Source: an uncultured Campylobacter sp.
GTDB taxonomy: Bacteria > Campylobacterota > Campylobacteria > Campylobacterales > Campylobacteraceae
Assembly (NCBI GenBank): GCA_900539255.1
Contig: UQBJ01000003.1
Coordinates: 22,058-86,057, forward strand
Direction of reading: 5' to 3'
Length of the DNA: 64,000 bases
The notes under the pieces were generated by a model. The model did no database searches, was not told the DNA's origin, and saw nothing but the letters and a program-made list of their open reading frames with translations. Of this stretch, positions 1 through 57,775 are shown piece by piece (position 1 is the stretch's first letter; each line of letters begins with the position of its first letter). Made by a program: the position numbers and the translations under genes.

Positions 1-3
1 AAT

Positions 4-1788: not shown

Positions 1789-1793
1789 TAAAC

Positions 1794-2090: not shown

Positions 2091-2092
2091 TT

Positions 2093-2587: not shown

Positions 2588-2598
2588 TACCTAACCCC

Positions 2599-3030
2599 TT
2601 AATTCAACTTCGAGCTGGCATCAACTATGCCACCAAAAATGCTGCCTTGCTTTTTCAGCACGCCATCAAGCGCATTTACCATAGCCGCATTTTTGCTCAT
2701 CTCGCTCGTCTCCACATCTAAATCCACCGTGTTAGCATCATTTCGTGCTAAATGCCCGTCTCTCAAATAAATAGTCGATTTATTTGGGTCTGGGAACTTC
2801 CAAGGCTCTTGATGAGCCTCGTGAGTCAAAGCCACTTTCAGTTCTTTACTATCGTCTTTTTTGAAAATAACTTTTGCCCTATTGACTAATGCCGTTTCAA
2901 ATTCTATGTCGCGCGCCTTGAAAAATGGCGTATCGACATTCGCAAGGTTTGAGATAATCATCTCATTTCTAATGTTGCGCCCTGCCAAAGCCGAGCTTAC
3001 CAGCTCTTTGGACTTAAACGGAACTATCAT
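2599..3030 (-). CDS. flgB: Flagellar basal-body rod protein FlgB
   Basis: 143 aa with the rod N-terminal motif (SNLANVDTP). It is the first gene of the operon. Confidence 0.9.
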   Translation of the reverse strand: MIVPFKSKELVSSALAGRNIRNEMIISNLANVDTPFFKARDIEFETALVNRAKVIFKKDDSKELKVALTHEAHQEPWKFPDPNKSTIYLRDGHLARNDANTVDLDVETSEMSKNAAMVNALDGVLKKQGSIFGGIVDASSKLN

Positions 3031-3066
3031 TTTTATCCTTTTTCAAAGCATTAGTATCAATATGAA

Positions 3067-3083
3067 GCAAAAAGCGTTCCAAA
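3067..3083 (-). promoter_or_regulatory. sigma54 (RpoN) promoter for flgB-flgC-fliE
   Basis: The plus strand reads GCAA-aaagc-GTTCCAA, which is the reverse complement of TTGGAAC-N5-TTGC. This is an exact match to the Campylobacter sigma54 -24/-12 consensus. It lies ~37 bp upstream of the flgB ATG. Confidence 0.7.
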
Positions 3084-3166
3084 TTTTAAAACGGAGTAAA
3101 TTTTTTGAGAAATTTTTAAATTTTCAGCACAAACCTTAAAAAAGCCCAAATTCCAAAGCCAAACGC

Positions 3167-3976
3167 CTAAAAATTCAAACTCGCCCCAAGCCGAAATTCC
3201 ACACTTTGCCCCTTTTCATAAAAAATTTTACGCGGATTAAAAAGCTGATGAAAGGCGTTAAATTCGGCAAAAATGTCAAATTCTTTAAAGGCGTTTAGCC
3301 CAGCAAAAAGGCTTATTTTGCTGTCATAGCCGCGGTTGTTGTCGTTTAAATCATAATAAATTTGATATTCGCCGATAAATTTAAACCCCTCAAAGCTCGC
3401 CACAACGCCACTTTTAAGCGACACGAAAGGGTTGTGGATAAGCTCATATCTATAACCCAAATCCCCAAGCGCATAAAAGCTAAACGCCCCAGCATAAGCG
3501 CCCACGCCAAGCCCTAAATCAAGCGTAGGAAAAAGCCTTGTGCGCTCATTTTGCTCACCTTTAAAGTGCTTATTTGCTCCTTTTGCGTATAAATTTGGCT
3601 CAAAACGCAAGCTGATGAGCTTTGAAAGGCTGTTTGTCCGCAAAGTATCAGCCACGCTAAAAAGGTGCAAAAGCTCGATTTTATGCAAAAAAGCCTTGAA
3701 TTTATCGTCTTTATCAAGCCCAGCAAAACGCAGTTCAAGCGAAGTAAGGCGCGATTCTATCAGCTCTTTGTAGGCGTTGTTTGCGTTTTTTATGTCCGAG
3801 TAAATGGGCGCAAAATATAAAAAGCCTTGACGGGCTGAGCCGTTCAAATGCGTAAGCCCAAAAGAGATTTTTGAGCTTTTGCGAGTGTTTAAAATGTCGT
3901 TGCTGCCAAATTTTTGCACGAATTTTTGCTTGTTTGGCGGGGTTTTAAGCTCATATACAGCAAATAAAAAGCGCAA
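3167..3976 (-). CDS. Hypothetical protein, possible outer-membrane beta-barrel (C-terminal ...LNF)
   Basis: 269-aa ORF with a TTG start and alternating amphipathic segments. The terminal aromatic residue is typical of OMPs. No family recognised. No clear signal peptide at the annotated start. Confidence 0.4.
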   Translation of the reverse strand: MRFLFAVYELKTPPNKQKFVQKFGSNDILNTRKSSKISFGLTHLNGSARQGFLYFAPIYSDIKNANNAYKELIESRLTSLELRFAGLDKDDKFKAFLHKIELLHLFSVADTLRTNSLSKLISLRFEPNLYAKGANKHFKGEQNERTRLFPTLDLGLGVGAYAGAFSFYALGDLGYRYELIHNPFVSLKSGVVASFEGFKFIGEYQIYYDLNDNNRGYDSKISLFAGLNAFKEFDIFAEFNAFHQLFNPRKIFYEKGQSVEFRLGASLNF

Positions 3977-4046
3977 ATAAGCACTTTGACTTTTGACATT
4001 TGTATAAAAGTGCTAAATTTAGAGTAGAGTAGCGTTTGAAATGAGT

Positions 4047-4068
4047 AAGCCCGCTTCAATGCGGGCTT
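4047..4068 (-). terminator. Putative rho-independent terminator after lipoprotein gene
   Basis: GC-rich 8-bp stem aagcccgc/gcgggctt with a 6-nt loop. A moderately T-rich tail follows on the minus strand. Confidence 0.35.
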
Positions 4069-4093
4069 TACGGCTTAAATTTACAAGCAAATG

Positions 4094-4552
4094 CTAGAAT
4101 TTGCACTCATAAATCTCGCCTTTTACCCGCAATGAGCTGACTTCTTTGACATCAAAGTTGTTGCCGGGGCAAGGGATTTCAGGATTGTCGTTTGCACTGC
4201 CTGTTAGCGACTTCATAAAGCCTTTTTCAGCCTTGCAATTCCATATTTCAGCTGCGTGATACACGACCAAACGCTTGCTGCTGCCCACTTCGACAAGATA
4301 GGCGGATTTGTTGAGCAAGTCATTTTTCGCGCTTTCTCTCATCATCTCCATAGTTGCACTCGTTTCGCCGATACGCGCTATGCCTTCTTTTTCGCCTACA
4401 AGCATACAACCCATAGGCTTGCTTTGCGAAAACGCCAAACGATGAGCGTCTGATGATAAAGCTGTTACTTGGTAAAGCGGTTTTGAACTGCACGCCATAA
4501 ACAGCAACGACAAGCCGCAAAATGCGGCGACACTAAGAACGGATTTAAGCAT
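4094..4552 (-). CDS. Putative lipoprotein
   Basis: 152 aa with a signal peptide and lipobox (LLFMAC-SS). A strong RBS AAGGAG lies 5 nt upstream of the ATG. Confidence 0.7.
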   Translation of the reverse strand: MLKSVLSVAAFCGLSLLFMACSSKPLYQVTALSSDAHRLAFSQSKPMGCMLVGEKEGIARIGETSATMEMMRESAKNDLLNKSAYLVEVGSSKRLVVYHAAEIWNCKAEKGFMKSLTGSANDNPEIPCPGNNFDVKEVSSLRVKGEIYECKF

Positions 4553-4600
4553 AATAGCTCCTTTGTTGTGAAAAATTTATCTTATGAAAAGATATGCACT

Positions 4601-4619
4601 ATTATAATGCCCCCCCCCC
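4601..4619 (-). promoter_or_regulatory. Candidate phase-variable promoter: G10 homopolymer immediately upstream of TATAAT -10 box
   Basis: The minus strand reads GGGGGGGGGG-CAT-TATAAT. The poly-G spans 4610-4619 and the -10 hexamer spans 4606-4601, about 48 nt upstream of the lipoprotein ATG. Confidence 0.5.
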
Positions 4620-4848
4620 TTAAATTAACCTTAAAAGAAGCTTAAAGTTAGCTTAAATTTCAAAAATTTTTCGCCACTTGCGTGGAAAACAAATTTAGAA
4701 ATCAAAATAAAATTCAACGCAAGCGCGGAAATTTAGGCAAAAGAGCGGAAAGTGAAAGCTAAAATTTGAAAATTTAAGCGAAAATCAAAGTGTTTGAGTG
4801 AGAAATTTAAATTTTGAGTAGGAATTTAGCGTTTTAGAAAGTTTTGAA

Positions 4849-4968
4849 AAAAGGTTTGAAAAAAGTGTTAAGAAGTTTTAAAAAGTTTTGCAAAAGGTGT
4901 TAAAAGGTTTCAAAAAGTTTTAAAAAGTTCTAAAAAAGCATTAAAAAAGTTTTCAAAAATGTAAATTC
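4849..4968. repeat. Phased A-tract array (~11-bp period gttttaaaaaa-like units, ~11 copies)
   Basis: Direct reading shows repeated aaaagtttt/aaaaggttt units with a helical-repeat period. This implies intrinsically bent DNA upstream of a consensus promoter. Confidence 0.6.
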
Positions 4969-4972
4969 CCCC

Positions 4973-5001
4973 TTGACATTAGTCCCAAAAAAGACTATAA
5001 T
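4973..5001 (+). promoter_or_regulatory. Consensus sigma70-type promoter TTGACA-N17-TATAAT
   Basis: TTGACA at 4973-4978, a 17-nt spacer, then TATAAT at 4996-5001. It is followed by the inverted repeat CCTTGTAAA...TTTACAAGG at 5005-5038, a possible operator or attenuator. It drives toward the SMR pair. Confidence 0.55.
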
Positions 5002-5039
5002 TAGTCCTTGTAAAGACTAAATTTACTTGTTTTACAAGG

Positions 5040-5220
5040 ATAAGGCGCAAAAAGATTAGGAAAGTAAGAAAAATAAAAAGAAAGCAAGAAAAGCAAATAC
5101 GCAAAAAGTTAAAAAATAAGAAAACAAAAAAGCAAATTTAAGTAAAAAGTTAAAAAAAATAAAAAATACAAAAGACAAAATGCAAAAAAGTATAAGAAAG
5201 CAAAAATAAAAAAGGACAAA
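5040..5220 (+). other. Purine-rich (A/G-only) ~180-nt leader preceding SMR operon
   Basis: The sequence is almost devoid of C/T (e.g. aagaaaaataaaaagaaagcaagaaaagcaa...). It lies between the promoter and the SMR start codon. The 5056-5241 ORF on the opposite strand is a poly-F artifact. Confidence 0.5.
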
Positions 5221-5221
5221 A

Positions 5222-5602
5222 ATGACAAAAATTTCTCGCATTCGCTCGTGGATAATGCTGTGTTTGGCTATCGCGCTTGAAATTGCAGGGCTTAGTTTGC
5301 TTCAAGTTTTTGAGGAAAGTCCCGTTTTAAGCAAGGTGATTTTGGTGTGTTTTATGAACGCTTCTTATTTTCTTATGTCCTTAGCGTTGCGCCAAATTTC
5401 AGTGGGTGTGGCGTATGCGGCGTGGGAAATCATCGGCGGCATAGGCGTTTTGTTTGTGAGTTTTATCTTTTTTAACCCTATTTTAAGCACTCAGCAATAC
5501 TTCGGCGTAGCACTTGGTTTCATCGGCATAGTTTGCATTATCTTGGGCGAAAAGCACGACACAAGCGCAAATTCCGCTCTAAATTTAAAGGCAAAGGACT
5601 AA
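5222..5602 (+). CDS. Small multidrug resistance (SMR/DMT) family protein, subunit 1
   Basis: 126 aa with 4 TM segments and an EmrE/Gdx-like motif (AYAAWEIIGGIG). It is the first gene of a tandem pair. Confidence 0.8.
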   Translation: MTKISRIRSWIMLCLAIALEIAGLSLLQVFEESPVLSKVILVCFMNASYFLMSLALRQISVGVAYAAWEIIGGIGVLFVSFIFFNPILSTQQYFGVALGFIGIVCIILGEKHDTSANSALNLKAKD

Positions 5603-5603
5603 A

Positions 5604-5921
5604 ATGGCGGCGTTTTTACTCATTTGCTTTTCGGGCGTTTTGGATATTTTTTCAAATTTAGCTTTGGCAAAGTCCGATGGCTTTAAAAAGCTATGGTGGG
5701 GGCTTTTGGCTTTGTTGCTTGTGGATAGTTGCTTTGTGGCTTTGGCTTTTGCGCTTGATTTGGGTATGCAGCTGCCCGTTGCTTACACGCTTTGGGGCGC
5801 GATAGGCATTTTGGGAACTACGGCTGGGGGATATTATTTTTTCGCTCAAAAGCTCAAACCCATAGGCTTTGTAGGCATTGTGTTGGTGCTTTGCGCTGTT
5901 TATTTGCTGCATTTTGCGTAA
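5604..5921 (+). CDS. Small multidrug resistance (SMR/DMT) family protein, subunit 2
   Basis: 105 aa with 4 TM segments and an SMR motif (AYTLWGAIGILG). It is adjacent and translationally coupled, suggesting a heterodimeric SMR like EbrAB/YkkCD. Confidence 0.8.
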   Translation: MAAFLLICFSGVLDIFSNLALAKSDGFKKLWWGLLALLLVDSCFVALAFALDLGMQLPVAYTLWGAIGILGTTAGGYYFFAQKLKPIGFVGIVLVLCAVYLLHFA

Positions 5922-5931
5922 GGGCTGGGCT

Positions 5932-6384
5932 ATGCAAATCAGCGAGGCTCAAATCCACGAATTTAACAGGCTTTATTATAAGATAAATGGCTTGTATGCG
6001 CGTTTTGAGAACGCAAAAAACATAAATAGCTCGGTGTATAAGGTTTTGCACGCACTTTTCATCAGCGAACTTCACACGCAAAAGGACATTATGCAAAGCT
6101 ACGAAATGCCCAAACAAACGATAAACAATGTCATCGCAAACCTGCAAAAGCAAGGTTTTATCGACATTTCATCAAGCCAAAACGACAAGCGTGAAAGGAT
6201 TTTAAATCTCACAGCTAGGGGCAAAGCGTATGCAAAGGACTACACAAGCGCATACACAGCCTTTGAGATGAAAGTGTATCAAAGTTTGGGCGCGCGAAAT
6301 TTAAGCAAACTCACTCAAATTTATGCGGATTTTGAAAGGGCTTTCAATGAAGTTTTTAATGCGGAGTTTAGCAAAAAGGACTAA
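5932..6384 (+). CDS. MarR-family transcriptional regulator
   Basis: 150 aa with a winged-HTH MarR-like core. ATG at 5932 with AGGG 8 nt upstream. The upstream extension in the ORF track overlaps the SMR gene and is rejected. Confidence 0.7.
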   Translation: MQISEAQIHEFNRLYYKINGLYARFENAKNINSSVYKVLHALFISELHTQKDIMQSYEMPKQTINNVIANLQKQGFIDISSSQNDKRERILNLTARGKAYAKDYTSAYTAFEMKVYQSLGARNLSKLTQIYADFERAFNEVFNAEFSKKD

Positions 6385-6488
6385 ATTTGCGCCTTTAAAA
6401 AGCGCGTAAATTTAACGCTTTGCGAAAAAAGCCTTAAAACAAAGCATTTTTGACAATCAAATTCCAAAAACCTAAATTCAGCACAAGG

Positions 6489-20769: not shown

Positions 20770-22038
20770 ATGTTTCAAAGCAAGACTTATGAAATCAGCT
20801 CCACAGACGACATAGAACTTGGCATAAGGCGTTACTCAAAGCTCGAATTTAAGGTGAGTTTTGATGATACAAAGCCGATGAAAGCCTTGTTTGTCTTTAT
20901 CAACGGCATTAGAGATGAGGATTATGCGGGCTATGAGGAACATTTGGCTGAATTTGTGGTGCAAACTTATGGCGTGGCAGTGCTTCGAGTAGATTATCAC
21001 TGCATAGGCTTTCGCCCGCAAACGGGGGCGACTTTTTATATGGACAAAAGAGACAAGGAAATTTTCAAGGCACAATGCAGCGAAATCGCTCAGCATTGCG
21101 ACATAGAGCTGAATTTGCCCGATGACTTGTCAAATGATGAAAATTTAGGGCAAAATGAAAGCTACGCCCTTTTAACCAGCCTTAACGACATTATTTTAGA
21201 GCTTAAAAACGCCCACAAAATTCCACAAGACTACCGCTCGCCGCTATCCATAAGTTTGCAGCCTACCAAAAACGAGTATCAAAACTTTGGACTTATGCAA
21301 GCCCTTGACATAATCAACGCCATTTATTTTGTGCGAAAGCACCACGCTGAATTTAAGCTCGCTAAAACGCCCAAAACCTTGCTCTTTGGCACTTCGCACG
21401 GAGGCTATCTTGGCTTTTTGTGCGCTAAATTTGCTCCGTGGCTCATAGATGCAGTAGTGGAAAATTCAGGCTATGCAAATGCGCCGTTGAGATTTTTGGG
21501 CTTTGGCAAGGAATTTGATTATAAGGCTTGCTTTGAAAGCAGCACGGCAAGTATGTTTGACCATCTTGCCATCTTTGTCTTTACCAAAACCTTTTTCACA
21601 AGCGTTCAAAGCTCGCCAAAGTGCTACACCGAAGCGCACGACAAAATCCGCTCTTTGCCAGAACTCGACCACCTGCAAACGCAAGCTGCTTGCCACAAAG
21701 CCGTTTTCGTGTCTTACCACAGCGCAAGAGACTTTGACATAGCCCGCCCAGAGCCAAAACAAAGGCTTTATCAAATGCTTGCTAAACTTGACTTTGACGC
21801 CACTTTGCACTTGATAAAAGATGAAGGCGAAGTTGATGGCAAATTCATCAAAAATTTAAAGCACGGAATGGATATGTCCTTAAAAACGCTCATCAAAAAA
21901 GAGCTGCCGCCCTTGCTTGCCCGAAAATTCACACATAAAAAGAGTGAGAAACACGAAATCACCTACAAAAGCGAGAATTTAGAGTATAAATTCAAAGAAA
22001 AGGCTGATAGCATCGAGCTTGTCATCAAAAAACTCTAA
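20770..22038 (+). CDS. Alpha/beta-hydrolase-fold protein of a Campylobacter-restricted family (DUF2920 / Cj0617-Cj1305-like, by recollection)
   Basis: 422 aa with a GxSxG nucleophile elbow (LLFGTSHGGYLG). The N-terminus YEISSTDDIELGIRRYSKLEFKV resembles motility-accessory '617 family' proteins. Accessory context immediately after pnp. Confidence 0.45.
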   Translation: MFQSKTYEISSTDDIELGIRRYSKLEFKVSFDDTKPMKALFVFINGIRDEDYAGYEEHLAEFVVQTYGVAVLRVDYHCIGFRPQTGATFYMDKRDKEIFKAQCSEIAQHCDIELNLPDDLSNDENLGQNESYALLTSLNDIILELKNAHKIPQDYRSPLSISLQPTKNEYQNFGLMQALDIINAIYFVRKHHAEFKLAKTPKTLLFGTSHGGYLGFLCAKFAPWLIDAVVENSGYANAPLRFLGFGKEFDYKACFESSTASMFDHLAIFVFTKTFFTSVQSSPKCYTEAHDKIRSLPELDHLQTQAACHKAVFVSYHSARDFDIARPEPKQRLYQMLAKLDFDATLHLIKDEGEVDGKFIKNLKHGMDMSLKTLIKKELPPLLARKFTHKKSEKHEITYKSENLEYKFKEKADSIELVIKKL

Positions 22039-22051
22039 ATTTCAAGCGAAA

Positions 22052-22210
22052 TTTGTGCTTTGCAAATTTTAAATAAAATTTTTGCTTTATAAATTTAAAG
22101 TGAAAATTTTGCTTTACAAATTCAAAGTGGAATTTGTGCTTTGTAAATTTAAAGTGGAATTTATGCTTTATAAATTTTTAGGGAAAATTTGTGTTTGTGT
22201 AAATTTAAAG
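22052..22210. repeat. Degenerate tandem repeat, ~27-bp unit tgctttayaaatttaaagtggaattt x ~6
   Basis: Direct reading. The repeat translates into a spurious ORF at 22082-22273. Confidence 0.8.
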
Positions 22211-22231: not shown

Positions 22232-22325
22232 CTTGTCATACTGAGCTTTCGCAAGAAAGCGAAGTATCCATAATTTTAAAGTGTTTTGAATTCTGTGGAT
22301 TTTTCGCTACGCTCAAAATGACAAA
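22232..22325 (+). repeat. Dispersed imperfect-palindrome element, copy A
   Basis: TTGTCATACTGAGC-[ctttc gcaa gaaag mini-hairpin]-GCGAAGTATCCA ...~25 nt... TGTGGATTTTTCGC-tac-GCTCAAAATGACAA. The two arms are near reverse complements. The same element occurs at ~31142, ~43508 and ~57607. Confidence 0.8.
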
Positions 22326-25490: not shown

Positions 25491-27817
25491 TATTTACACG
25501 AAGTTGGATTAGTCAGTTTATCGACATAAGCGACAAAAGTTTAAGCGAAATTTGCGCCACACTCAATGCTGTGGGCATCGAAGTAGAAAGCTCTCACGCC
25601 TTACGCGCACCAGATAAAGTCGTAGTAGGCTTTGTCAAAGAAAAAAGCAAGGTAGAAAACTCCGACAAACTCAGTCTTTGCAAGGTTGATATAGGCGAAA
25701 AGGATTTGTTGCAAATCGTTTGCGGGGCGAAAAATGTCGCCGCTGGGCAGTTTGTGGCTGTGGCGCTTGTGGGCGCGGTTTTGCCAAATGGCACTAAAAT
25801 CGCCAAAGCAAAGCTTCGTGGGGTTGAAAGCGAGGGTATGATTTGCTCATCAAGCGAACTTGGCTTTGAAAAAACAAGAGACGGCATAATGGTGCTTGAC
25901 GATACTATGGGCAAACTCGTGCTTGGGCGAGCCTTAAACGCCTATGAAATCTTTAACGATGAAGTTATAGAAGTGGATATAACGCCAAATCGTGGGGATT
26001 GTCTAAGCGTGTATGGCATAGCACGCGAGTTAAGCGTGGCTTATGATAAAGATTTGAAAGCCCTTGACGCTTATGAAGAGTCCAAAGAAACCCCAACCGT
26101 TGGGCGAATTTTGCGCGTGCAAGCGGACAAAAATCTCAACAGCTGTTTTGATTATAGAGTGGTTGAAAAAGCCCAGCCCGTGAGTGTTTTTAGTATCGTG
26201 GCGGAGTTAAGACTTGCTACTATCGGCAAGCTCACGCCTTGCGTAGTCTCAAACATACTTCAATACGCCACTCACGCCACAGGCGTGCTATTTAACGCCT
26301 ATGATTTAAAGGCTTTGAGCGACAAAGATGATGAAATCCTTTTGCAAGTGCGTAAGGGCGCGCAAGGCGAAAGCAAGGTGTATCACGAAGACAAGCTATT
26401 AAGCACGAGCGGAATTTACACGCAGGATTTTGGTAAGGTTGATGAAAACAGCCGTTTTATCATCATCGAAGCAAACTACACCACGCCAAGCGTCATCGCC
26501 GCCGCAAAAGACAGCTACAAAAAACTTGACGAGGACAGCATTTACCGCGCCTTTCGGGGCAGCGAACCGCAGTTAAAGCTAGGAATGCAGTATTTGATGA
26601 GCCGCATTATATCAAGACCGCACATTCATATCTACCAAAATTCACAGCAAATTTCGCTCAAATGCAAGAGCGCGAACATAAGGCTTGATTTAAGCGAGGT
26701 GGAAAAGCTCATCGGCGTGAGTGTCAAGGCTAGCGAAGTGGCGCGGATTTTAAAAAGGCTGAATTTTGAAGTCGATGTGGTAGAAAAGGATTTGTTTAGT
26801 GTCAAAGCTCCGATTTTTCGCAGCGATATAAACAATTTCGCCGATGTTTGCGAGGAAATCACACGCGTTATCGGCATCGACAATATCCCCGCAAAGCCCT
26901 TGCAGCTTACCGAGCAAACCCGCTTGAATGAGTGTTATTACGAGTATAAAGACTTGTCCGCACTTCGCCACAAAGCAGTGGCAAATGGCTACTTTGAGAG
27001 CGTGCATTATGTGCTTGACAGCGAGGAAGAGCTTGGCGCACTTGGCTTTAAAGCGAGCAAAACAAAGCTCATCAACCCCATCAGCACCGAGCTAAACGCC
27101 TTACGCCCAACACTTATCAATCATCTTTTAAACGCCGTGAGCTTTAACACCAAAAATTCAAAAAAAATCATCAAACTTTTCACTAGCGGAGCGGTTTTTG
27201 ATGAGAATTTAAACGAAAAAAACAAAATCGCTTTCGTGTTTAGCGGCTTTAAGGACGAGCCAAAGATAGCAAACAAAGCAAAGCCTGAATTTATCGACTT
27301 TTACAGCTTTTTGCTTGAAATGAAAACCATCATCGGCGACTTTACGCTAAACCGCGCTCATTACGGCTTTTTAAACCCTTACGAGCAAGCAAGTGTCCAT
27401 AAAAACGGGCTTTGCATAGGCTTTGTAGGGCGCGTGCATTTAGGCATAGAGCGCGACAAGGACTTGCAAAAGACTTATCTTTGCGAGCTTGACTTGTCCG
27501 CCTTGCGAAATGAGCCAAAAAAAGCCAAGCCATACTCCAAATTTCCACAGATGAGCCGCGATTTGAGCGTGATTATCCCCAAAGATTACGAGTATGAAAA
27601 GATAAAAGACTGCATAAAAGCCCTTAAAATCGGCATTTTAAAAAGTTTTCGCGTTGTGGATTTATACGAGGACGCGTCCTTGCAAGGCAAATACAGCCTT
27701 ACCATAGCCTTTGTTTTCCAAAACGATGAAAAAACCCTAGCCGATAGCGAAGTGAGCGAGCAAATGGAGCTGATTGTCCGCTCACTTGATGAGAATTTAG
27801 GGCTGAAACTGCGATGA
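25487..27817 (+). CDS. pheT: Phenylalanyl-tRNA synthetase beta subunit
   Basis: 776 aa with tRNA-binding, B3/B4, B5 and FDX-ACB domains recognisable. It overlaps the pheS stop. Confidence 0.92.
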
Positions 27818-29097
27818 AAATTCACGCTTTAACGCAGGGTTTTGACAAAGAGTTTGAAAAAATCGCCGCTGATAAGAGCATATCTCATCGCTTTGCCATT
27901 TTTTCAATGCTTTGTGAGAGTGAGTGCGTGGCAAAGAACTATTTACTTGCAGAAGATACACTTAACACCCTTGAAATAGTGCGAAATTTAGGCGCACTCG
28001 TGCAAAGAAATGGCGATGAAGTGCGTATCAAAGCCCCAAAAAGCCTAAATTCTCCAAACAAAATTTTAGAGTGTGGCAACTCTGGCACGGCTATGCGCCT
28101 TTTTATGGGCTTTTTAGCTGGGGTGAATGGCTTTTTTGTTTTAAGCGGCGACAAATACCTAAATTCTCGCCCGATGAAGCGAATCAGCGAGCCTTTGCAA
28201 AGCGTTGGGGCGAAAATTTACGGGCGCGAGGGCGCAAATTTAGCCCCGCTTTGCATAGAGGGCGGCGAGCTTAAAGCCTTTGAGTATCAAAGCCCTATCT
28301 CATCGGCGCAGGTAAAAACCGCGCTCATTTTAGCGGGCTTTCGCGCAAAGGGCGTGTCGCATTTTAGCGAAACAAAACTCAGCCGCGACCACAGCGAAAA
28401 TATGCTTTTAGCGATGAATGCGCCTATAAATTTAAGCGAAAATGGACTAAAAATCGAAATTTCGCCACTCACAAAGCCTTTAAAACCGCTTAATATCGTC
28501 ATTCCAAACGACCCATCATCGGCGTTTTATTTTGCGCTTGCGGGCGCGCTTTTGCCAAATTCACGCGTGGTGCTGAAAAATGTGCTTTTAAACAAAACCC
28601 GCATTGAAGCCTTTAAGGTGCTTGAAAAAATGGGCGCAAGGATTGAATTTAAGCAAATTCACAACGACTTTGAAAGCGTGGGTGAAATTTGCGTTGAAAG
28701 CTCGCATTTAAGGGCTGTGAGCGTGAGTGAAAATATCTCGTGGTTGATTGATGAAGCCCCAGCACTTGCCATAGCCTTTGCCTGCGCTGAGGGCGTTTCA
28801 AGGCTTACTAATGCCAAAGAACTGCGCGTCAAAGAAAGCGACCGCATAAGCGCTGTGGTGCAAAATTTGCAAAAATGTGGCATCGTGGCAAAAGAGCTTG
28901 ATGATGGCTTTGAGATACAAGGTGGCGTGGCGAAAAGGGCGAAAATTCAAAGTTTTGGCGACCACCGCATAGCGATGAGCTTTGCTATCTTGGGGCTTAA
29001 ATGCGGTATGGACATAGATGAATGCGAATGTATCAACACTTCTTTTCCAAATTTTCTTTCACTGCTTGAAAATTTGGGAGCTGTGGTTGAAAGATAA
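27814..29097 (+). CDS. aroA: 3-phosphoshikimate 1-carboxyvinyltransferase (EPSP synthase)
   Basis: 427 aa with motifs LGNSGTAMRL and RPMKRI. It overlaps the pheT stop. Confidence 0.92.
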   Translation: MKIHALTQGFDKEFEKIAADKSISHRFAIFSMLCESECVAKNYLLAEDTLNTLEIVRNLGALVQRNGDEVRIKAPKSLNSPNKILECGNSGTAMRLFMGFLAGVNGFFVLSGDKYLNSRPMKRISEPLQSVGAKIYGREGANLAPLCIEGGELKAFEYQSPISSAQVKTALILAGFRAKGVSHFSETKLSRDHSENMLLAMNAPINLSENGLKIEISPLTKPLKPLNIVIPNDPSSAFYFALAGALLPNSRVVLKNVLLNKTRIEAFKVLEKMGARIEFKQIHNDFESVGEICVESSHLRAVSVSENISWLIDEAPALAIAFACAEGVSRLTNAKELRVKESDRISAVVQNLQKCGIVAKELDDGFEIQGGVAKRAKIQSFGDHRIAMSFAILGLKCGMDIDECECINTSFPNFLSLLENLGAVVER

Positions 29098-29198
29098 ATT
29101 TAAAATTTAGGATTTAAATTTTGTTATTTTAGCTAAATTTTTAAGCTTGATTTTATAAATTTTTTCTTAAATTTTTCGTATAAAATTCATAAATTTTG

Positions 29199-29207
29199 TG
29201 TTATAAT
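29199..29207 (+). promoter_or_regulatory. Extended -10 promoter (TGtTATAAT) for YafQ-type TA module 1
   Basis: TGTTATAAT lies 31 nt upstream of the antitoxin ATG at 29238. Confidence 0.5.
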
Positions 29208-29237
29208 GCAAGTATAAAGCCAAAAGAAAGGACTAAA

Positions 29238-29477
29238 ATGGGCGCAAAGGCTATTGATTACAGCGTTTATAACGAAGAAGCCTTGTTTATGGAGCTTAAC
29301 AGCACCAAAGAGCAAATCGCTGAGCTAGAAAGTAAAAAAAGCCAAATCGAGCAAGCGTTGCAAAGCATACCCACTGATGAAACGGCTAATGCTTTGAGAA
29401 ATTCTTACACCGTGCTTAAAACAAAGGATTATACGGATTTTGAAAAAATGCTTGCAAGCGAAGATGATGAGCAATAA
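29238..29477 (+). CDS. Putative antitoxin (DinJ/RelB-like position) of YafQ-type TA module 1
   Basis: 79 aa with an acidic C-terminal tail (SEDDEQ). It has an ATG/TAA overlap with the toxin gene. The start is placed at 29238 (RBS AAAGGA) rather than 29196, which overlaps the -10 box. Confidence 0.5.
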   Translation: MGAKAIDYSVYNEEALFMELNSTKEQIAELESKKSQIEQALQSIPTDETANALRNSYTVLKTKDYTDFEKMLASEDDEQ

Positions 29478-29752
29478 TGCGCGAAATTCACTTTGAAAAC
29501 ACCTACATAAAGGACTTTAAACTTGTCAAAAAACAGGGTTGGAATTTAGAAAAAATCAAAAACACGATTTTACAGCTCCAAACTTGCGAAATTTTAGACG
29601 AAAAACTTAACGACCACTCATTAAAAGGCGATTTTAAAGGGTTTAGAGAATGCCATATCTTTGGGGATTTGGTTGTCATCTATAAGCGAGATAAAGAAAT
29701 TTTGACACTTTACAGGATAGGCAGACACCAAGATTTGTTTAAAAACTACTGA
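29477..29752 (+). CDS. YafQ/RelE-family mRNA interferase toxin
   Basis: 91 aa carrying the pattern HSLKGDFKGFRECHIFGDLVVIYKRDKEILTLYRIGRHQDLF, which is characteristic of YafQ. Confidence 0.75.
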   Translation: MREIHFENTYIKDFKLVKKQGWNLEKIKNTILQLQTCEILDEKLNDHSLKGDFKGFRECHIFGDLVVIYKRDKEILTLYRIGRHQDLFKNY

Positions 29753-29858
29753 ATTTTCGTGTAAAATTTCGCAAAAATTCACAAATTTTGCGTAAAATTT
29801 CAAGGAAGTTAAAACAAATTTAAAACAGCAAAATTTCAAACGACAAAAAGGAAACATT

Positions 29859-30698
29859 GTGATTATCGAGTTAGCGGAAAATTATGGCTTTTGTTTTGGC
29901 GTAAAAAGGGCGATTAAAAAAGCCGAGCAGGTAGGAAACGCCGCTACCATAGGCGAGCTTATCCACAACCCTGCTGAAATTTCGCGCTTGCAGGCGAATT
30001 TTAATGTCAAAACCCTGCAAAACATAAGCGAGTTAAAGGACGAAAAAAAGGCGATTATACGCACGCACGGCATCACAAGGGGCGATTTGAGCGAGCTTCG
30101 CAAAAAAGACATTGAAATTTACGATGCGACTTGCCCCTTTGTAACCAAACCCCAGCAAATTTGCGAAAAGATGAGCGCGGAAGGCTATGAAGTCGTGATT
30201 TTTGGCGATGAAAACCACCCAGAAGTTAAGGGTGTGAAAAGCTATGTCAGCACCAAAGCCTATGTCGTGCTTGATGAGAGCGAGCTTTTAGGGGTGCGAC
30301 TGCCCGCAAAAATCGCCGTGGTAAGCCAAACGACAAAAAAACCCGAGCTTTTTGCCAAAATAGTGAGCTTTTTAGTGGCTAAGTGCAAGGAAGTGCGCGT
30401 GTTTAACACGATTTGCGATGCGACTTTCAAAAACCAAGATGCCATCGAAAAACTCTCATTAAAAAGCGATGTGATGGTAATTGTTGGCGGTAAAAACTCA
30501 GCAAACACCAAGCAGCTCTTTCTCATCGCGCAAGGAAACTGCAAGGATAGCTATTTAATCGAAACAAAAAGCGAGTTAAAGCCCGAGTGGTTCGCGGGCA
30601 AAAAGCATTGCGGTGTGAGCGCTGGGGCTAGCACGCCTGAGTGGATAATCGCCCAAGTTGTCGAAAAAATCAAAGAAATCGACAAAGATTTAGGCTAA
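29859..30698 (+). CDS. ispH: 4-hydroxy-3-methylbut-2-enyl diphosphate reductase
   Basis: 279 aa with a GTG start and RBS AAAGGAAAC. It has the IspH/LytB N-terminus and the three conserved Cys. Confidence 0.9.
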   Translation: MIIELAENYGFCFGVKRAIKKAEQVGNAATIGELIHNPAEISRLQANFNVKTLQNISELKDEKKAIIRTHGITRGDLSELRKKDIEIYDATCPFVTKPQQICEKMSAEGYEVVIFGDENHPEVKGVKSYVSTKAYVVLDESELLGVRLPAKIAVVSQTTKKPELFAKIVSFLVAKCKEVRVFNTICDATFKNQDAIEKLSLKSDVMVIVGGKNSANTKQLFLIAQGNCKDSYLIETKSELKPEWFAGKKHCGVSAGASTPEWIIAQVVEKIKEIDKDLG

Positions 30699-30827
30699 AA
30701 CGGCTGAATTTTGTTTGAAATGCGGATTTTGTTTGGCTTTTTTGATTTTTTTGGCTTTTGAGCTTTATTTTGTTTGATTTAAAACTAGGTTTGGTTTTTG
30801 TTTTGCTTTTAAGCTTTGTTTGTTTGT

Positions 30828-30960
30828 TTTTAGGCATTGTGAGCTTGCTTACTTTTAGACATTGCGAGTTTTTTTAGGCGTTATAAGCTTAGTTATTTTT
30901 AGGCGTTGCAGACTTGCTTTTTTGTTTTTAAGCATTTTAGGTTTGGCTTGTGTTAGATTG
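30828..30960. repeat. Degenerate tandem repeat (~25-bp unit ttttaggcrttg..agcttg.ttat x ~5)
   Basis: Direct reading of the intergenic region after ispH. Confidence 0.7.
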
Positions 30961-31020
30961 TTTTTTTGCAAAAAATTGCGTGCCGTGTTGCCGTTGCAAA
31001 CTACCAAAATAGCACGATAT

Positions 31021-31245
31021 GCTTCGTCATTGCGAGCGAGTTTTGCAAGCGTAATTTAAATGCAAATTCAGTTCTATGGATTGCCACGCTTTGCTTTCGC
31101 AAAGCTCGCAATGACAAAACCCTTGTCATACTAACTTGCGTCTTGTCATACTGAGCGCAGCGAAGTATCCATAAATTCAAAGTATATCTTAAATACTTCT
31201 TTGTGGATTTTTCGCTTTCTAGTGAAAGCTCAAAATGACAAAAAT
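31021..31245 (+). repeat. Dispersed imperfect-palindrome element, locus B (divergent copy 31024-31118, half-site 31121-31141, full copy 31142-31241)
   Basis: Full copy: TTGTCATACTGAGCG-ca-GCGAAGTATCCATAA ... TTGTGGATTTTTCGC-[ctttc tagt gaaag]-GCTCAAAATGACAA. An upstream variant reads GTCATTGCGAGCGAG...GCTCGCAATGACAAAA. It lies between convergent ispH and aroB. Confidence 0.8.
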
Positions 31246-31276
31246 GGCGTAAAAAGTCCAAATTTTCACGCTAAAT

Positions 31277-32335
31277 TCAGCCTGCAAAGCTTTCAAGCAC
31301 CTTTATAACGCTTTCTTTGCTGATGTCGTTTTTGATGATAGCCTTGCCAAGCCCTTGCAAAAGGACAAAGTTGATTTTGGAATTTGCGCTTTTTTTATCA
31401 AGGAAAAAGGCGTTGTAAAATTCCTCTGCGTTGCTGATTTTATAGTGCGTTGGCAAGCTAAATTTTTCAAACAATGCCTTTATGCGGTCGTTTTCACTCT
31501 GCGTGATAAGTCCAAGCGCGAGTGAAAGGGCGTTTGCCATCACTATGCCTATGGCGACAGCCTCGCCGTGTAGATACAGCTTGTAATCCGTTTGTTTTTC
31601 GATGATATGCGCGAACGAATGCCCGAAATTTAGAAGCATTCTCAGCTGGTTTTCGCGCTCATCGACACTCACTATGCTAGCTTTGAGCTGCACGCTTTTG
31701 CTGATGATTTGGCTAAACTGCTCGCTTGGTAAATCGGCTTTTAAAAAGGCATTTGTGTCTAAACTCTCGATGAGTTCGAGCGCGTCCGTGTCAAAACACG
31801 CCGCCATTTTGATAAATTCAGCCATACCTGCGGCAAGTTCTCGGCTACCAAGCGTTTCGAGAAACTCACTCTCACAATAAACGGCTTTTGGCTGGTAAAA
31901 TGAGCCGATGAGATTTTTGCCAAAGGCGTTATTTACTCCTGTCTTGCCACCCACAGCCGCATCAACCATAGCTAAAAGCGTAGTCGGCACGCTGATGAAA
32001 TCAATCCCGCGCTGATAAATGCTCGCCGCAAAGCCACCTATATCCGTAACAACCCCGCCGCCAAAGGCAATCAGCGTGCTTTTTCTGTCAAGCTGGCTTA
32101 CAAACATTTGATTGAACACCTCTTCAAGCGTGGCAAGGTTTTTATACTGCTCGCCGTCCTTTATGGTGATGATGAAAAGCTCATCACACGAAATTTTAGC
32201 AAGCAGATTTTTAAGGTGCAAGCCCGCGACTTTGGCGTTGGTAAGCACCGCCACTTTGCCCTCAAATTCGAGCTTTGAAAGCTCATTGATGGAGACTTTG
32301 TAGGAATTGTTTTCTAAATTTACGAGTATTTTCAT
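31277..32335 (-). CDS. aroB: 3-dehydroquinate synthase
   Basis: 352 aa with the NAD-binding [13 protein letters not shown] motif and metal-binding His residues. Confidence 0.92.
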
Positions 32336-32349
32336 CGTTTTGCCTTATT

Positions 32350-32628
32350 TTATTTTTTAAAAAGTTCGCTGTGCGAACCAAGTCGCACAAGGTGCAATTC
32401 GTCTTTGGTAATTTTATACACCAAAAGTAAATTTGGCTTTATATGACACTCTTTGTAAGCCTTTAAATCGCCCGTAAGCTTGTGGTCTTGGTATTTTGGT
32501 GCAAGTGGAATTTGACAAAGCAAGCTCTCAACGACACTTTCAATCTCATCTTGCGTGATAATGCCTTGCTTGTAGATTTTTTTAATGTCGCCTTTAAAGC
32601 TATTTTCGACTTTGAGCTTTAACTTCAT
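32350..32628 (-). CDS. YafQ/RelE-family mRNA interferase toxin (paralog 2)
   Basis: Carries HKLTGDLKAYKECHIKPNLLLVYKI...LHLVRLGSHSELF. This parallels the toxin at 29477-29752. An ATG at 32628 or a TTG at 32634 could be the start. Confidence 0.7.
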   Translation of the reverse strand: MKLKLKVENSFKGDIKKIYKQGIITQDEIESVVESLLCQIPLAPKYQDHKLTGDLKAYKECHIKPNLLLVYKITKDELHLVRLGSHSELFKK

Positions 32629-32881
32629 CGTCAATCTCTCGCTTCATTTCGTCCCAAAAATCGCTAAATTTCTCATAACTTTTGCCATTTTTTCCGCTCT
32701 CGCATTCTTTCATCGCCTTTAAAGTCTCTTTATTTGGGATTTCTTTAAGGTTTTTGGGTGCTTTTGTTTTTTTGCTTTTATCGACCTTAAATTTCGCATT
32801 AGCGACTTTGGCAAGTTCTTTAAATACCTTTAAAAATTCATCGCTGACATTTTCTAGCGTGATTGTGGCTGAATTCATCAT
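32600..32881 (-). CDS. Putative antitoxin of YafQ-type TA module 2
   Basis: 93 aa upstream of and overlapping the toxin by ~29 bp. A TATAAT -10 and RBS AAAGGACG lie upstream. The sequence is unrelated to the module-1 antitoxin. Confidence 0.45.
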   Translation of the reverse strand: MMNSATITLENVSDEFLKVFKELAKVANAKFKVDKSKKTKAPKNLKEIPNKETLKAMKECESGKNGKSYEKFSDFWDEMKREIDDEVKAQSRK

Positions 32882-51116: not shown

Positions 51117-51406
51117 AAACGCGAGCAAGCAACTTAAAAGCTGAATTTTGCTTGATTTTAGATGAAAATTTTGGGCGAAATTCGGCTTTTTGCGTGGCAA
51201 AACCTTGCGAAAGTCAAAAAATTTACAGCATTGAAACAAAACTATAAATTTATAGCGTTGAAACAAAGTTATAAATTTTTTAGCTAAAAAGCGTTGATTG
51301 TGAGTGAATTTTATCAATCATCGCAAGCAAAGCTTTTTTGCAAGCTTTGCTTAATCCAGCCTTTGCAAGCATTGTCTTTTCAAGCATTTGCGTTTGCTAA
51401 CGCCCG

Positions 51407-53560
51407 CTAGTATTTATACTCAAAGCCTGCAAACCATTGTCGCCCAGCGAAATGATAGCTCTGCCCTATAACGCCTGAGTAGTTATCTCTATCGGTTAAA
51501 TTCAGCACGCCAGCATTGACACTCAAACCCTTGCCAAGCTCGTAGTTTGCCGACAAGTCCAAAGTAAAGTAGTTTGCACCCTTGTCATAGCCGCCGTTGC
51601 CGTCTTCATAGTATCTTGCGCTTTCAAGTGTGCTAAGAGCGATGAATTTAAGGCTGTTTATCGGCTTTATGATGATTTTAGCATTAGCTATGTGGTTTGG
51701 ATAATCAAGGATTTTTTTGCCATCCGAGCTGCCGTAAGCTTCAAGCTCCACGCCTTTGGCTCTTTTTTGGATAAAACTATAATTCGCCCCCAAAATCAGC
51801 ATATCATCAGCGAAAAAGCCCTGCTCCACGCCCACTTCACCGCCATAAGTGTAGCCGCTGTCCGCATTGACATTTTGGTAGCAAGAGTATTTGCCTCTTT
51901 TGTTTTCAGGCACGGCGCAAACGGCTTTTGCTGCGTTTTCATCTGCCGTTTGAATAAGCGTTTTTTGGACAAACATATTTTTCATATCGTTGTAAAACAC
52001 CGCCACGCTTAAATTCGTGCTTCCAAGTGCTAAATCATACCCTAGCTCGTAATTTATGGCATTTTCTATGTCAAGCCCCGGGCTTTTAACCTGCGCGCCC
52101 CATAGTGATGAGTAGCGTTGCTTTAAGGTTGGCAGGTTGTTTTTCTTGCCAAGCGTGAAATGCACGCTTTGCGCTGAGCTTATATCATAATAAAGCACGC
52201 CCTGCAAAGAGTAGCCATCATCAAGTTCGGGCTGTTTGTCTTTGACATTGCCTTGTCCGTCCTTAAAGTCGATATTCAAAGGCTCTATAAAATCATAGCT
52301 TCCAGCCACGACAGCACGAAACACGCCCAGCCTTTGGGAGTATTGCGCGAAAATGCTTGTGCTAAGCTCTTTAAGCTCGGTGTTGATAGCCTTTGTGCTA
52401 GCGTCCTTTTCCAAATGCGTGTCTTTTTTTGTGTTGATACCAAATTTAGCGTTTGCATTTTCATAAATGTCATAGCCAAGCGTCAAAATAAGCCCCAAAG
52501 TGTTATCATCATAAATAGAGCTTACGCCGCAAAACCCAGCACTGCTCGCGCTGCCATCAGCGTTTAGGCATTTTGTTTTATCGCCAATGAGAGTGTTGTA
52601 AAAGGTATCATAATAAAGCCTTGTGTTTAGGCTCAAATCGGGCGTAAAGTATGAATTTCCTAGCAAATAAAGTGTCTTTTTGTCGTAGTTTGTCCAGTCC
52701 CACCAAGGTCCGCCGCCATCATCGCTGTATAAACCGCCCTTTTCGCCCCTTTGATAGATGAAATTCAAAGAGTATTCGTGGTTTTCATTTGGCATAATGC
52801 CCGCTTTGAGTTTAGCGGTTTTGTTTCTATAATAAGCGTTGATTTTATCGCCCTTTGGCTGTATGATAGTGGGCTTAAAATCGCTTGAAAGCGGGTAAGT
52901 GCTTCTGTCTGTGTGCGAAATGTCGGCTTGAAAGTAGAATTTACCGACATTTGAGCCTATGCCAAAGCCTTGACGAATTTCATCAGGGCTTGAATGTCTG
53001 CCAAAAAGCAAATTTTGACGCACGGAGATTTCAAGCTCTTTTTGCGGGCGGTGCGAGATGATATTTATCGCCCCGCCAAGCGTGTTCATACCATAAACAG
53101 GCGAGGCAAAGCCCTTGCTGACTTGAATGCTCCCTATGCCTTGCGTAACATACTGCCCAAAATCCGTCTGTTTGTCATAAACGCTCATCATAGGAATGCC
53201 GTCTAAAAACAGCCCGATTTGAGTGCCATTAAACCCACGAATGCTAATGCTTGGCTCGCCACGCCTTGCCGTAGCTTCACTCATCAAAACGCCCGGCGTA
53301 AAACGCACCGCTTGGGCTATATTGTCAGCATTTAACTCTTGTATGTCCCTAAAAGTCGTGCTTTGAATGCTAGGATTATAGTCTATCTCCTGCGGGGCAG
53401 TAACTTCGACAGCACCAAGTTCATAAGTAGGAAGCGTGGTGCTTAAATTTAGCTTTGAATTCAGCTCACTTGTAGCGTTACTCTCACCAAAAGCACAGCT
53501 TGCAAGCAAGCCTAAACAAAGCGTTTGCGAAAGCAAAATCTTGCTAAAATAACCTTGCAT
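51407..53560 (-). CDS. TonB-dependent outer-membrane receptor
   Basis: 717 aa with a signal peptide, a plug domain (PSISIRGFNGTQIGLFLDGIPM) and a 22-strand barrel ending ...WFAGFEYKY. Confidence 0.88.
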   Translation of the reverse strand: MQGYFSKILLSQTLCLGLLASCAFGESNATSELNSKLNLSTTLPTYELGAVEVTAPQEIDYNPSIQSTTFRDIQELNADNIAQAVRFTPGVLMSEATARRGEPSISIRGFNGTQIGLFLDGIPMMSVYDKQTDFGQYVTQGIGSIQVSKGFASPVYGMNTLGGAINIISHRPQKELEISVRQNLLFGRHSSPDEIRQGFGIGSNVGKFYFQADISHTDRSTYPLSSDFKPTIIQPKGDKINAYYRNKTAKLKAGIMPNENHEYSLNFIYQRGEKGGLYSDDGGGPWWDWTNYDKKTLYLLGNSYFTPDLSLNTRLYYDTFYNTLIGDKTKCLNADGSASSAGFCGVSSIYDDNTLGLILTLGYDIYENANAKFGINTKKDTHLEKDASTKAINTELKELSTSIFAQYSQRLGVFRAVVAGSYDFIEPLNIDFKDGQGNVKDKQPELDDGYSLQGVLYYDISSAQSVHFTLGKKNNLPTLKQRYSSLWGAQVKSPGLDIENAINYELGYDLALGSTNLSVAVFYNDMKNMFVQKTLIQTADENAAKAVCAVPENKRGKYSCYQNVNADSGYTYGGEVGVEQGFFADDMLILGANYSFIQKRAKGVELEAYGSSDGKKILDYPNHIANAKIIIKPINSLKFIALSTLESARYYEDGNGGYDKGANYFTLDLSANYELGKGLSVNAGVLNLTDRDNYSGVIGQSYHFAGRQWFAGFEYKY

Positions 53561-53783
53561 AGTGTTCTCCTTGTGTTTTGAAATTGTTTCATAAGTGCAT
53601 ATTATAACACAAAATTTGCGGATTTGTTCAAAAAGAGAATAAATTTTTTAATAAGATTTTTTGGGACTAAAACGAGTTTTGAGCGTGAATTTTTTGCAAA
53701 ATTTTTAAATTTTGATGAATTTCTGCAAATTTTTGTGAATTTTAGCTTTCAAAAGGCTTTTAGGATTTTAAAAGCCTTTTATC

Positions 53784-57317: not shown

Positions 57318-57560
57318 AGCCACATTTTAAATTTTCTAAATTCTACTTTTAAATTTTAAACTCTTTTTCTAAATTTTTAAACTTTTTTGAATTCTTTTTC
57401 TAAATTTCTAATTTTTTTGAACTCTTTTTCTAAATTTTAAACTCCATTTGTAAATTGTTGAACTCTTTTTTCTAACTTTCTAAACTCTATTTTTAATTTT
57501 CTAAATTTTTATTTAAATTTCTAAACTTTTTTGATTTTTTTAAATTTTAAACTCTAATTA
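57318..57560. repeat. Degenerate tandem repeat (~21-22-bp unit aactctttttctaaattttta x ~10)
   Basis: Direct reading of the flaG/Sel1-gene intergenic region. Confidence 0.75.
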
Positions 57561-57566
57561 ACTTAT

Positions 57567-57775
57567 CTTGTCATACTTCGCTATTTTTGTCATACTTTGT
57601 TATTTCTTGTCATACTGAGCGTGAGCGAAGTATCCACAAATTTAAAGCGTGCCTTAAAATTCTTTGGATTTTTCGCTACGCTCAAAATGACAACGATTTG
57701 TTTGCCATACCGATAGTGTGATAAGTATCCATTTTGCTTTGCCATACTGAGCGTGTGCTAAGTATCCGCGAAGTT
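57567..57775 (+). repeat. Dispersed imperfect-palindrome element, locus D (three TTGTCATACT half-starts, full copy 57607-57692, two further left-arm-like units)
   Basis: Full copy: TTGTCATACTGAGCG-tga-GCGAAGTATCCACAAA...TTTGGATTTTTCGC-tac-GCTCAAAATGACAA. Flanking units: TTGCCATAC...AAGTATCCA and TGCCATACTGAGCG-tgt-GCtAAGTATCC. Confidence 0.8.

Follow-up and report, generated by a model that had tools for sequence, protein, structure and literature searches.

The 64-kb stretch of DNA analysed here (hereafter the window) is a metagenome scaffold from an uncultured Campylobacter species, whose best named AroB match is only 69% identical. A composite repeat cluster, termed locus B, lies in it between the convergent genes ispH (29859-30698, plus strand) and aroB (31277-32335, minus strand), which are 578 nucleotides (nt) apart. 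On balance, we favour the view that locus B is a mosaic cluster of non-autonomous, hairpin-ended elements devoid of an open reading frame (ORF), whose full-length relatives are cassettes carrying a GIY-YIG gene of the UPF0213 family. In particular, the hairpin that ends these elements recurs across bacterial phyla and is the boundary of compact UPF0213 GIY-YIG cassettes, and the copies in the window are probably ORF-less derivatives of such cassettes. More tentatively, these units might represent an undescribed class of minimal mobile elements: a ~390-bp cassette with a stand-alone Slx1-like GIY-YIG nuclease between two inverted G.A-mismatch hairpins, with many ORF-less derivatives in many bacterial phyla and some archaea and with mosaic arrays that mark rearrangement junctions, which would move by structure-specific cleavage and host repair and not by means of a transposase.

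A full copy of the hairpin element between ispH and aroB had been reported in a preliminary description of this DNA, and it is indeed present (element B; coordinates of all features are given in Table 1). Its inverted ends, TTGTCATACTGAGC (31143-31156) and GCTCAAAATGACAA (31228-31241), belong to two hairpins that pass a strict detector, one on each strand (31145-31168, plus; 31207-31239, minus), and its 38-nt spacer holds no GIY-YIG ORF. The detector recovered exactly the eight known hairpins of the window, with no false positives in 128 kb searched. Each end hairpin is 24-37 nt long and is built to the same plan, in which a conserved GTC foot leads into a 5-bp stem, followed by GA and a 2-bp GC clamp; beyond a variable tip, the clamp, GA, and the stem return in that order, and a C closes the hairpin. 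Both ends are inverted, and the outer bases of the unit read T-GTC...GAC-A, where the hyphens mark its edges. Other copies are found elsewhere in the window: the 15-mer TTGTCATACTGAGCG, taken from the left end, matches ten times with at most three mismatches (1.03 matches expected; none of 100 shuffles reaches 10), and four copies are full, all in identical orientation.

All four full copies have ATACT/AGTAT as their left stem and ATTTT/AAAAT as their right one, which indicates that complementarity is kept within each end and not between the ends. At least nine fully complementary stem variants occur in approx. 1 Mb of fetched loci (the two above, ATTCT/AGAAT, ATCCT/AGGAT, ATGCT/AGCAT, and others). 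Moreover, an unselected alignment of 23 hairpins contains 23 double-sided changes, compared with 7.5 in shuffles (0/500 as high), and the pairing is lost when the register is slid by one to three columns. The tandem G.A/A.G mismatch in the stem is conserved as well. Whole elements fold well with single-stranded DNA (ssDNA) parameters (-17 to -23 kcal/mol; z scores of -4.4 to -6.9); they also fold as a rod or a four-way junction, and it is the local end hairpins that the covariation supports. No target-site duplication could be discerned among 34 full elements, in which the longest k-mer common to both flanks is distributed as in a shuffled control.

Exact copies of the left hairpin (TTGTCATACTGAGC, 2-30 nt, GCGAAGTATC) are present in more than 106 stretches of a species-representative genome set. 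Its hosts include Latescibacterota, Bacteroidota, Ignavibacteria, Chloroflexota, Bacillota, Cyanobacteria, Verrucomicrobiota, Elusimicrobia, Nitrospinales, Campylobacter, and Helicobacter, together with one archaeon of the Methanomethylophilaceae. When the ORFs neighbouring the hairpin were clustered across these 106 loci, a single cross-phylum family emerged, that of a small GIY-YIG protein, and its ORF is situated between or beside hairpins in four of them (L002, L025, L040, and L106; comparison loci and contigs carry L numbers). The cassette-encoded protein of L106 (6615-7004) is from Mucilaginibacter glaciei. Within L040, the short elements match the gene-bearing copy of the same contig in both hairpins and in the bases beside the right hairpin, which is the pattern expected of internal-deletion derivatives. 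All-against-all clustering of ORFs near hairpins gave no recurrent large gene, the Helicobacter cluster consisting of restriction-modification and thiE ORFs; when the 106 loci were searched for a longer parent whose left and right ends would be 0.4-3.5 kb apart, only four unrelated cases came up.

The same linkage is seen when the protein is taken as the starting point. With a three-sequence alignment as the query, relatives were found to be encoded in 583 of 600 metagenome stretches, and 80 loci were kept; the ORF is intact in 76 of them and mostly encodes 93-116 amino acids. Within 200 nt of the gene, the strict detector finds an L-type hairpin upstream in 41 of the 80 loci, an inverted R-type hairpin downstream in 47, both in 29, and neither in 10. 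The density of hairpins is 5.46 per kb near the gene as against 0.34 per kb at distances of more than 300 nt, and they are typically separated from the start codon by 10-30 nt and from the stop codon by 8-30 nt. Eighteen tight units of the form T-GTCA...ORF...TGAC-A are 361-473 nt long (median, 388 nt) and have unrelated flanks; the flank profile, with T at -1 and A at +1, is common to them and the copies in the window. By sequence, the cassette proteins match the UPF0213 structures 1zg2 and 1ywl in the PDB and belong to the same family as E. coli YhbQ and other Slx1-like proteins, being likewise stand-alone minimal GIY-YIG domains; unlike E. coli yhbQ, their genes reside in compact hairpin-bounded units. 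Gene-bearing units have more than one layout, since besides single-hairpin flanks there are loci with complete ORF-less elements on both sides of the gene, that is, [L R] gene [L R] (L150, at ~1380-1500 and ~1840-1930, and L106, at 6400-7300). The UPF0213/Slx1-like family has been treated as one of vertically inherited repair proteins, and the question has been raised of whether other GIY-YIG members are molecular parasites (PMC1564403).

In their architecture, the elements recall repetitive extragenic palindromes (REPs), the REP doublets known as REPINs, and bacterial interspersed mosaic elements (BIMEs). They share with these short imperfect palindromes that are extragenic and multi-copy, an inverted doublet as the unit, mosaic clusters, a conserved 5' foot, and the absence of target-site duplication. 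The elements could thus be of REP/REPIN type and be moved by a RAYT, i.e., a Y1 HUH transposase, with two inverted imperfect palindromes as the mobile unit and clusters comparable to BIMEs; class 2.1 Y1 proteins are reported to be prevalent among epsilon-proteobacteria and certain classes to be atypical in structure (PMC6006769). We nevertheless consider this origin quite unlikely. The foot is GTCA, or GTCA(T/C) across 488 hairpins, instead of the GT[AG]G that defines known REPs, and subclass 2.1 Y1 genes reportedly lack REP-like flanks (PMC6006769). REPs are lineage-specific, whereas this hairpin is identical across phyla and carries a conserved tandem G.A mismatch. Moreover, the gene bracketed by the hairpins is GIY-YIG (UPF0213) and not a HUH Y1 transposase, both in 4 of the 106 hairpin-first loci and in most of the 80 protein-first loci, and tblastn with E. 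coli RAYT and IS200 TnpA queries, a weak test, gave no credible match in approx. 1 Mb of element-bearing loci.

A different explanation is that the elements act as RNA, be it as a terminator, a stabilising 3' hairpin, or a regulatory structure. The good folding of whole elements is compatible with such a role, as is their placement in the cassettes, where the L hairpin would sit in the 5' leader and the R hairpin just past the stop codon. The suggestion that the array serves as a bidirectional terminator did not hold up, however: no T-run follows the element hairpins, and the only terminator-like match lies outside the elements (31271-31247, minus strand), which is at chance level (1 found vs 1.1 expected). 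In addition, the four window copies occupy four different transcriptional contexts (convergent, tandem, antisense-intergenic, and divergent). The window has no Rfam match at the gathering threshold, and a search of 30650-31300 up to an E value of 10 gave only three unrelated sub-threshold matches (E values of 2.6-6.8). The inverted symmetry of the ends and the equal counts of G.T and A.C mismatches fit a DNA-level role better, and an RNA function is accordingly held to be highly improbable.

Two further modules adjoin element B within the cluster. The inverted-repeat element at 31024-31118, which had been taken for a diverged copy, does exist (15-nt arms at 31023-31037 and 31104-31118, with 93% complementarity; ssDNA fold of -21 to -23 kcal/mol, z scores of -3.6 to -3.9), but instead of being a decayed main element it is a member of a distinct, widely distributed subfamily, called TGC (GTCATTGCGAG...CGTGGCAATC; abbreviated GTCATTGCGAG...GCAATC), which has 37 matches in other genomes, mostly in Helicobacteraceae and also in Mucilaginibacter, Gastranaerophilales, cyanobacteria, and conspecific Campylobacter contigs. 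The isolated left half-site that had been read as a sign of repeated insertion is present as an exact 11-nt duplicate, CTTGTCATACT (31122-31132 and 31142-31152, spaced 20 nt). It is not evidence of a separate insertion, since truncated 5' arms ("stutters") ~20 nt upstream of a full hairpin characterise the family as a whole: among the 488 strict hairpins, 70 have a truncated copy of their own first 8 nt no more than 45 nt upstream, as against 9 with one downstream. Stutters are most often spaced 18-25 nt, with 7-11 nt as the usual length of the copied run.

The degenerate tandem repeat of ~25 bp noted upstream of these elements is real but weak. It comprises three 39-nt units with identities of 62-79%, and Tandem Repeats Finder (TRF) reports only a 21-nt period repeated twice (30797-30840). 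The units at 30830-30843 and 30855-30868 share 86% identity with the left end of the element at 31024; since at least two units thus resemble the TGC-type 5' arm, the whole array (30719-30960) may be a decayed stutter array. The two largest AT-rich arrays of the window lie directly upstream of copies A and D, and these tandem arrays, like those at locus B and in L129 (~3790-3990), are always on the ACT-stem side of the elements. At locus D, the AT-rich array is continuous with 5'-arm stutters of 19-nt period. AT-rich arrays upstream of elements may likewise be decayed stutter arrays.

That the cluster is mobile or recombinogenic, as had been proposed, is supported by comparison with other strains, which reveals polymorphism both in presence or absence and in copy number. 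Conspecific contigs whose IspH is 99% identical run from window position 30718 directly to 51140, with nucleotide identities of 97.6% and 94.4%; in contig L118, positions 1-4860 correspond to window 25860-30718 and positions 4845-7464 to window 51140-53758. In seven to eight conspecific contigs, ispH faces a TonB-receptor gene and the array is absent. Conspecific aroB contigs (AroB 98% identical) have a radical-SAM gene downstream and no element, their homology to the window ending at ~31255, and the order of aroB and the radical-SAM gene is also kept in more distant relatives. Only in this strain are ispH and the TonB-receptor gene separated by a 20.4-kb block (window 30719-51139). It carries core genes, namely aroB, a YafQ-type toxin pair, tgt, a sigma-70 gene, the nap operon, and an SBP gene, and it is flanked by a 16-nt direct repeat, GCTGAATTTTGYTTGA. 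The repeat cluster at 30719-31255 has no counterpart in either ancestral flank and fills the left junction of the block exactly.

A second polymorphic site is the napD locus, where strains that are 97-98% identical in their nap genes carry from zero to two-and-a-half copies (L129-L136 compared with the window). In some strains, two full elements are accompanied by a half, a TGC end, and an AT-rich tandem array. In one, there is a single element, which has three to four stutters, and the downstream gene is a different one. The elements are absent from three others (L131, L133, and L134), in which a tyrosine integrase gene is found in their place. The order of modules, i.e., main element, TGC element, and tandem array, is common to the napD locus and locus B.

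In its usual context (GTCATTCCCGC...GCGGGAATC), the Neisseria repeat dRS3 may resemble the hairpin. Copies of dRS3 flank RS units in Neisseria intergenic mosaic elements (NIMEs), which resemble the arrays described here in consisting of ~20-nt inverted repeats with variable units, in their strain-dependent length, and in being tied to recombination end-points and rearrangements (PMC1797815). The NIME repeats, 20 bp long and inverted around variable units, have been proposed to be recombinase sites, and phages integrate at dRS3 (PMC1797815); moreover, IS1111 inserts in REP-like palindromes of Coxiella (PMC5896051). The hairpins could similarly be recombinase sites, with the GIY-YIG gene as a frequent passenger or a homing insert, and this would suit arrays that vary between strains, lie at synteny breaks, and are replaced by a tyrosine integrase gene after napD. 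We regard this possibility as unlikely. The sequence differs from the 20-bp ATTCCC-N8-GGGAAT of dRS3, and NIMEs are stated to be absent outside Neisseria (PMC1797815), whereas this hairpin family crosses phyla. No recombinase gene recurs beside the hairpins in the 106 loci, and the right junction of the 20.4-kb block is without an element. The tight hairpin-ORF-hairpin geometry, repeated in many phyla with hairpins 8-30 nt from the ORF ends, exceeds what would be expected of a passenger.

As the window is a metagenome scaffold, the composite might also be an assembly artefact, in which repeats were collapsed or the ispH and aroB flanks mis-joined. Two independent Logan contigs from the same run, one extending from ispH through the repeats (L138) and the other from aroB (L108), do stop inside element B, at 31170 and 31173, respectively, without overlapping. 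However, L138 is identical to the window through ispH, the left junction (J1), the tandem repeats, the TGC element, the half-site, and the left hairpin, which confirms most of the composite and limits any artefact to the centre of element B. L108 confirms the sequence from aroB through the right hairpin, and another Logan contig (L140) confirms the right junction (J2), where no repeat exists at which a mis-join could occur. A lone chimeric join would not regain the context of the ispH flank 20 kb further on, and an artefact is thus very unlikely.

If the ORF-less elements do derive from GIY-YIG cassettes, their behaviour could be accounted for as follows. Hairpins extruded from the duplex, or formed on single strands, would be the substrate of the structure-specific GIY-YIG nuclease, supplied in trans; the stutters would point to a cut on the 5' arm, close to the tandem G.A. 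Breaks introduced by the nuclease at the hairpins would be repaired by host recombination, by which elements might be copied or moved without target-site duplication. The same cycle of breakage and repair could generate truncated 5'-arm stutters ~20 nt upstream and turn clusters into hot spots of rearrangement; the cluster is located, in this strain, at the left junction of the 20.4-kb block, which extends from aroB through the nap operon to the SBP gene. Such elements would be comparable to miniature inverted-repeat transposable elements (MITEs) derived from DDE insertion sequences, being short, non-coding, and inverted at their ends, and they resemble internally deleted copies of a longer gene-bearing unit, as in L040. 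Unlike MITEs, they lack target-site duplication, their ends fold on themselves and show compensatory evolution, and the longer unit has no DDE transposase. They would also have something in common with homing GIY-YIG genes of the I-TevI type, both free-standing and intron-borne, selfish genes whose spread depends on a break repaired by copying. The cassette proteins, in contrast to homing GIY-YIG enzymes, have no DNA-binding modules and are Slx1-like rather than members of the UvrC/homing branch, and the cassettes, unlike homing genes, have structured inverted ends and abundant ORF-less derivatives.

Several observations weigh against a cassette origin and nuclease-driven mobility. A GIY-YIG nuclease only hydrolyses DNA and is not known to have strand-transfer activity, and the proposed route to new sites is speculative. 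The association could be the reverse of that envisaged, the gene having homed into a pre-existing repeat. The UPF0213 family also contains single-copy, tightly packed genes that leave no room for flanking hairpins; E. coli yhbQ, for example, overlaps its neighbour yhbS. Moreover, no GIY-YIG gene is found in the window, in the conspecific contigs, or in ~40 Campylobacter and Helicobacter loci, so that a trans-acting partner in this lineage is hypothetical and the copies may be relics. The spacers of the window copies have diverged (mean column identity of 68%), and recent activity is therefore not evident here. An excess of G.T over A.C mismatches (9:1 in a small set) was not replicated in a larger set (28:20); no strand preference can thus be claimed, as would be the case for a structure extruded from the duplex. 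Finally, because L138 and L108 do not overlap, the join at 31171-31172 inside element B rests on one assembly.

Should the link between the hairpins and the GIY-YIG gene be correct, it would give part of the large uncharacterised UPF0213/bacterial Slx1-like family a role and a defined DNA substrate. It would also add a type of nuclease that is new to insertion-sequence-like elements of prokaryotes, in a unit smaller than any known autonomous one, and it would explain a hairpin repeat that annotators meet in many phyla and that is a source of spurious small ORFs. For this Campylobacter species, the analysis reveals which sequences mark variable loci and a 20-kb rearrangement. In the literature that could be reached, most subscription journals being outside it, nothing was found on the hairpin or on hairpin-bounded UPF0213 cassettes; papers on REPs, NIMEs, and Coxiella MITEs were retrieved, and searches with sequence strings returned primers only.

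Table 1. Coordinates of repeat modules, element copies, and related features (window positions unless an L number is given)
Feature	Position	Strand	Description
16-nt direct repeat, left copy (GCTGAATTTTGTTTGA)	30703-30718	+	Left junction (J1) of the strain-specific 20.4-kb block; spanned by Logan contig L138
Degenerate T/G-rich tandem repeats	30719-30960	+	Period of ~21-27 nt; no counterpart in conspecific ispH or aroB flanks
TGC-subfamily element	31024-31118		Left arm (31026-31052) decayed; right hairpin (31079-31115) intact (minus strand, GTCATTGCGAGCTTTGCGAAAGCAAAGCGTGGCAATC)
Truncated 5' arm (stutter)	31122-31141	+	CTTGTCATACT plus 9-nt spacer; 20 nt 5' of the full left end
Element B, full, ORF-less	31142-31243	+	Left hairpin 31145-31168 (GTCATACTGAGCGCAGCGAAGTAT); spacer 31169-31206; right hairpin 31207-31239 (minus strand, GTCATTTTGAGCTTTCACTAGAAAGCGAAAAAT)
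Gap of ~12 nt	31244-31255		From the end of element B to renewed homology with the conspecific aroB 3' flank
16-nt direct repeat, right copy (GCTGAATTTTGCTTGA)	51140-51155	+	Right junction (J2); no hairpin element; spanned by Logan contig L140
Element copy A	22233-22324	+	3' of an AT-rich tandem array of 27-nt period (22036-22210)
Element copy C with additional hairpin	43510-43640	+	Copy C at 43510-43590, additional right-type hairpin at 43594-43640; downstream of napD; polymorphic between strains
AT-rich array	57328-57532		Period of 20 nt; ahead of locus D
Locus D	57566-57775	+	5'-arm stutters at 57568 and 57587; full copy D at 57607-57693; two degenerate left-type hairpins at 57702-57775
ORFs entering elements	L043 1-2148; L045 2781-4022; L031 3596-4732; L013; L041		

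The hairpin is also met in further settings. On the Latescibacterota chromosome OZ242005.1 (L001, L010, L015, L021, L022, L042, L049, L056, and L062), a single hairpin is placed inside a larger repeat with conserved flanks (...ccccagccc-hairpin-tcatacccaaaac...gtatgaaggatgtagga...), i.e., the same module in a different carrier. In four Bacteroidaceae species (L024, L033, L093, and L102), it occurs at the same place, ~70 nt 5' of a conserved gene whose product starts with MATNVTNE, and represents an insertion fixed long ago or else a structure that has been co-opted. In Helicobacter and Campylobacter, stop-to-stop ORFs of thiE and of genes for restriction-modification (Eco57I-type, HsdS, and HsdM) enter hairpin elements at their 3' ends (Table 1), and in enterohepatic Helicobacter the elements may extend or replace protein C-termini. 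Viral contigs yielded no match to the hairpin pattern and one partial match to GIY-YIG relatives, and a BLAST comparison of the element with plasmid and phage collections produced nothing beyond marginal matches of 31-32 nt. Readings of the hairpin as a known structure were set aside: a hammerhead-like or kink-turn reading of CUGAGC...GCGAAG, because on inspection the core has neither the G8-A9 spacing nor a bulge, and an integron attC site, because the RYYYAAC/GTTRRRY ends are absent.

Exact-protein look-ups for locus A and the SBP gene returned matches from the same sample alone. Two toxin-antitoxin pairs of the YafQ/RelE type bracket the ispH-aroB junction (29196-29752, plus strand; 32350-32881, minus strand); the pair adjoining aroB is missing in two contigs with a 98%-identical AroB (L109 and L110) and present in more distant relatives. 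The ispH gene of the window is three codons shorter than that of conspecific strains (30694-30698 vs L118 4838-4849), TAA replacing GAA just ahead of the block junction. Upstream of the TonB-receptor gene, beyond the other end of the block, a near-palindrome with 38-nt arms and two 27-nt units (51216-51281) is conserved in L118 and is unrelated to the hairpin family.

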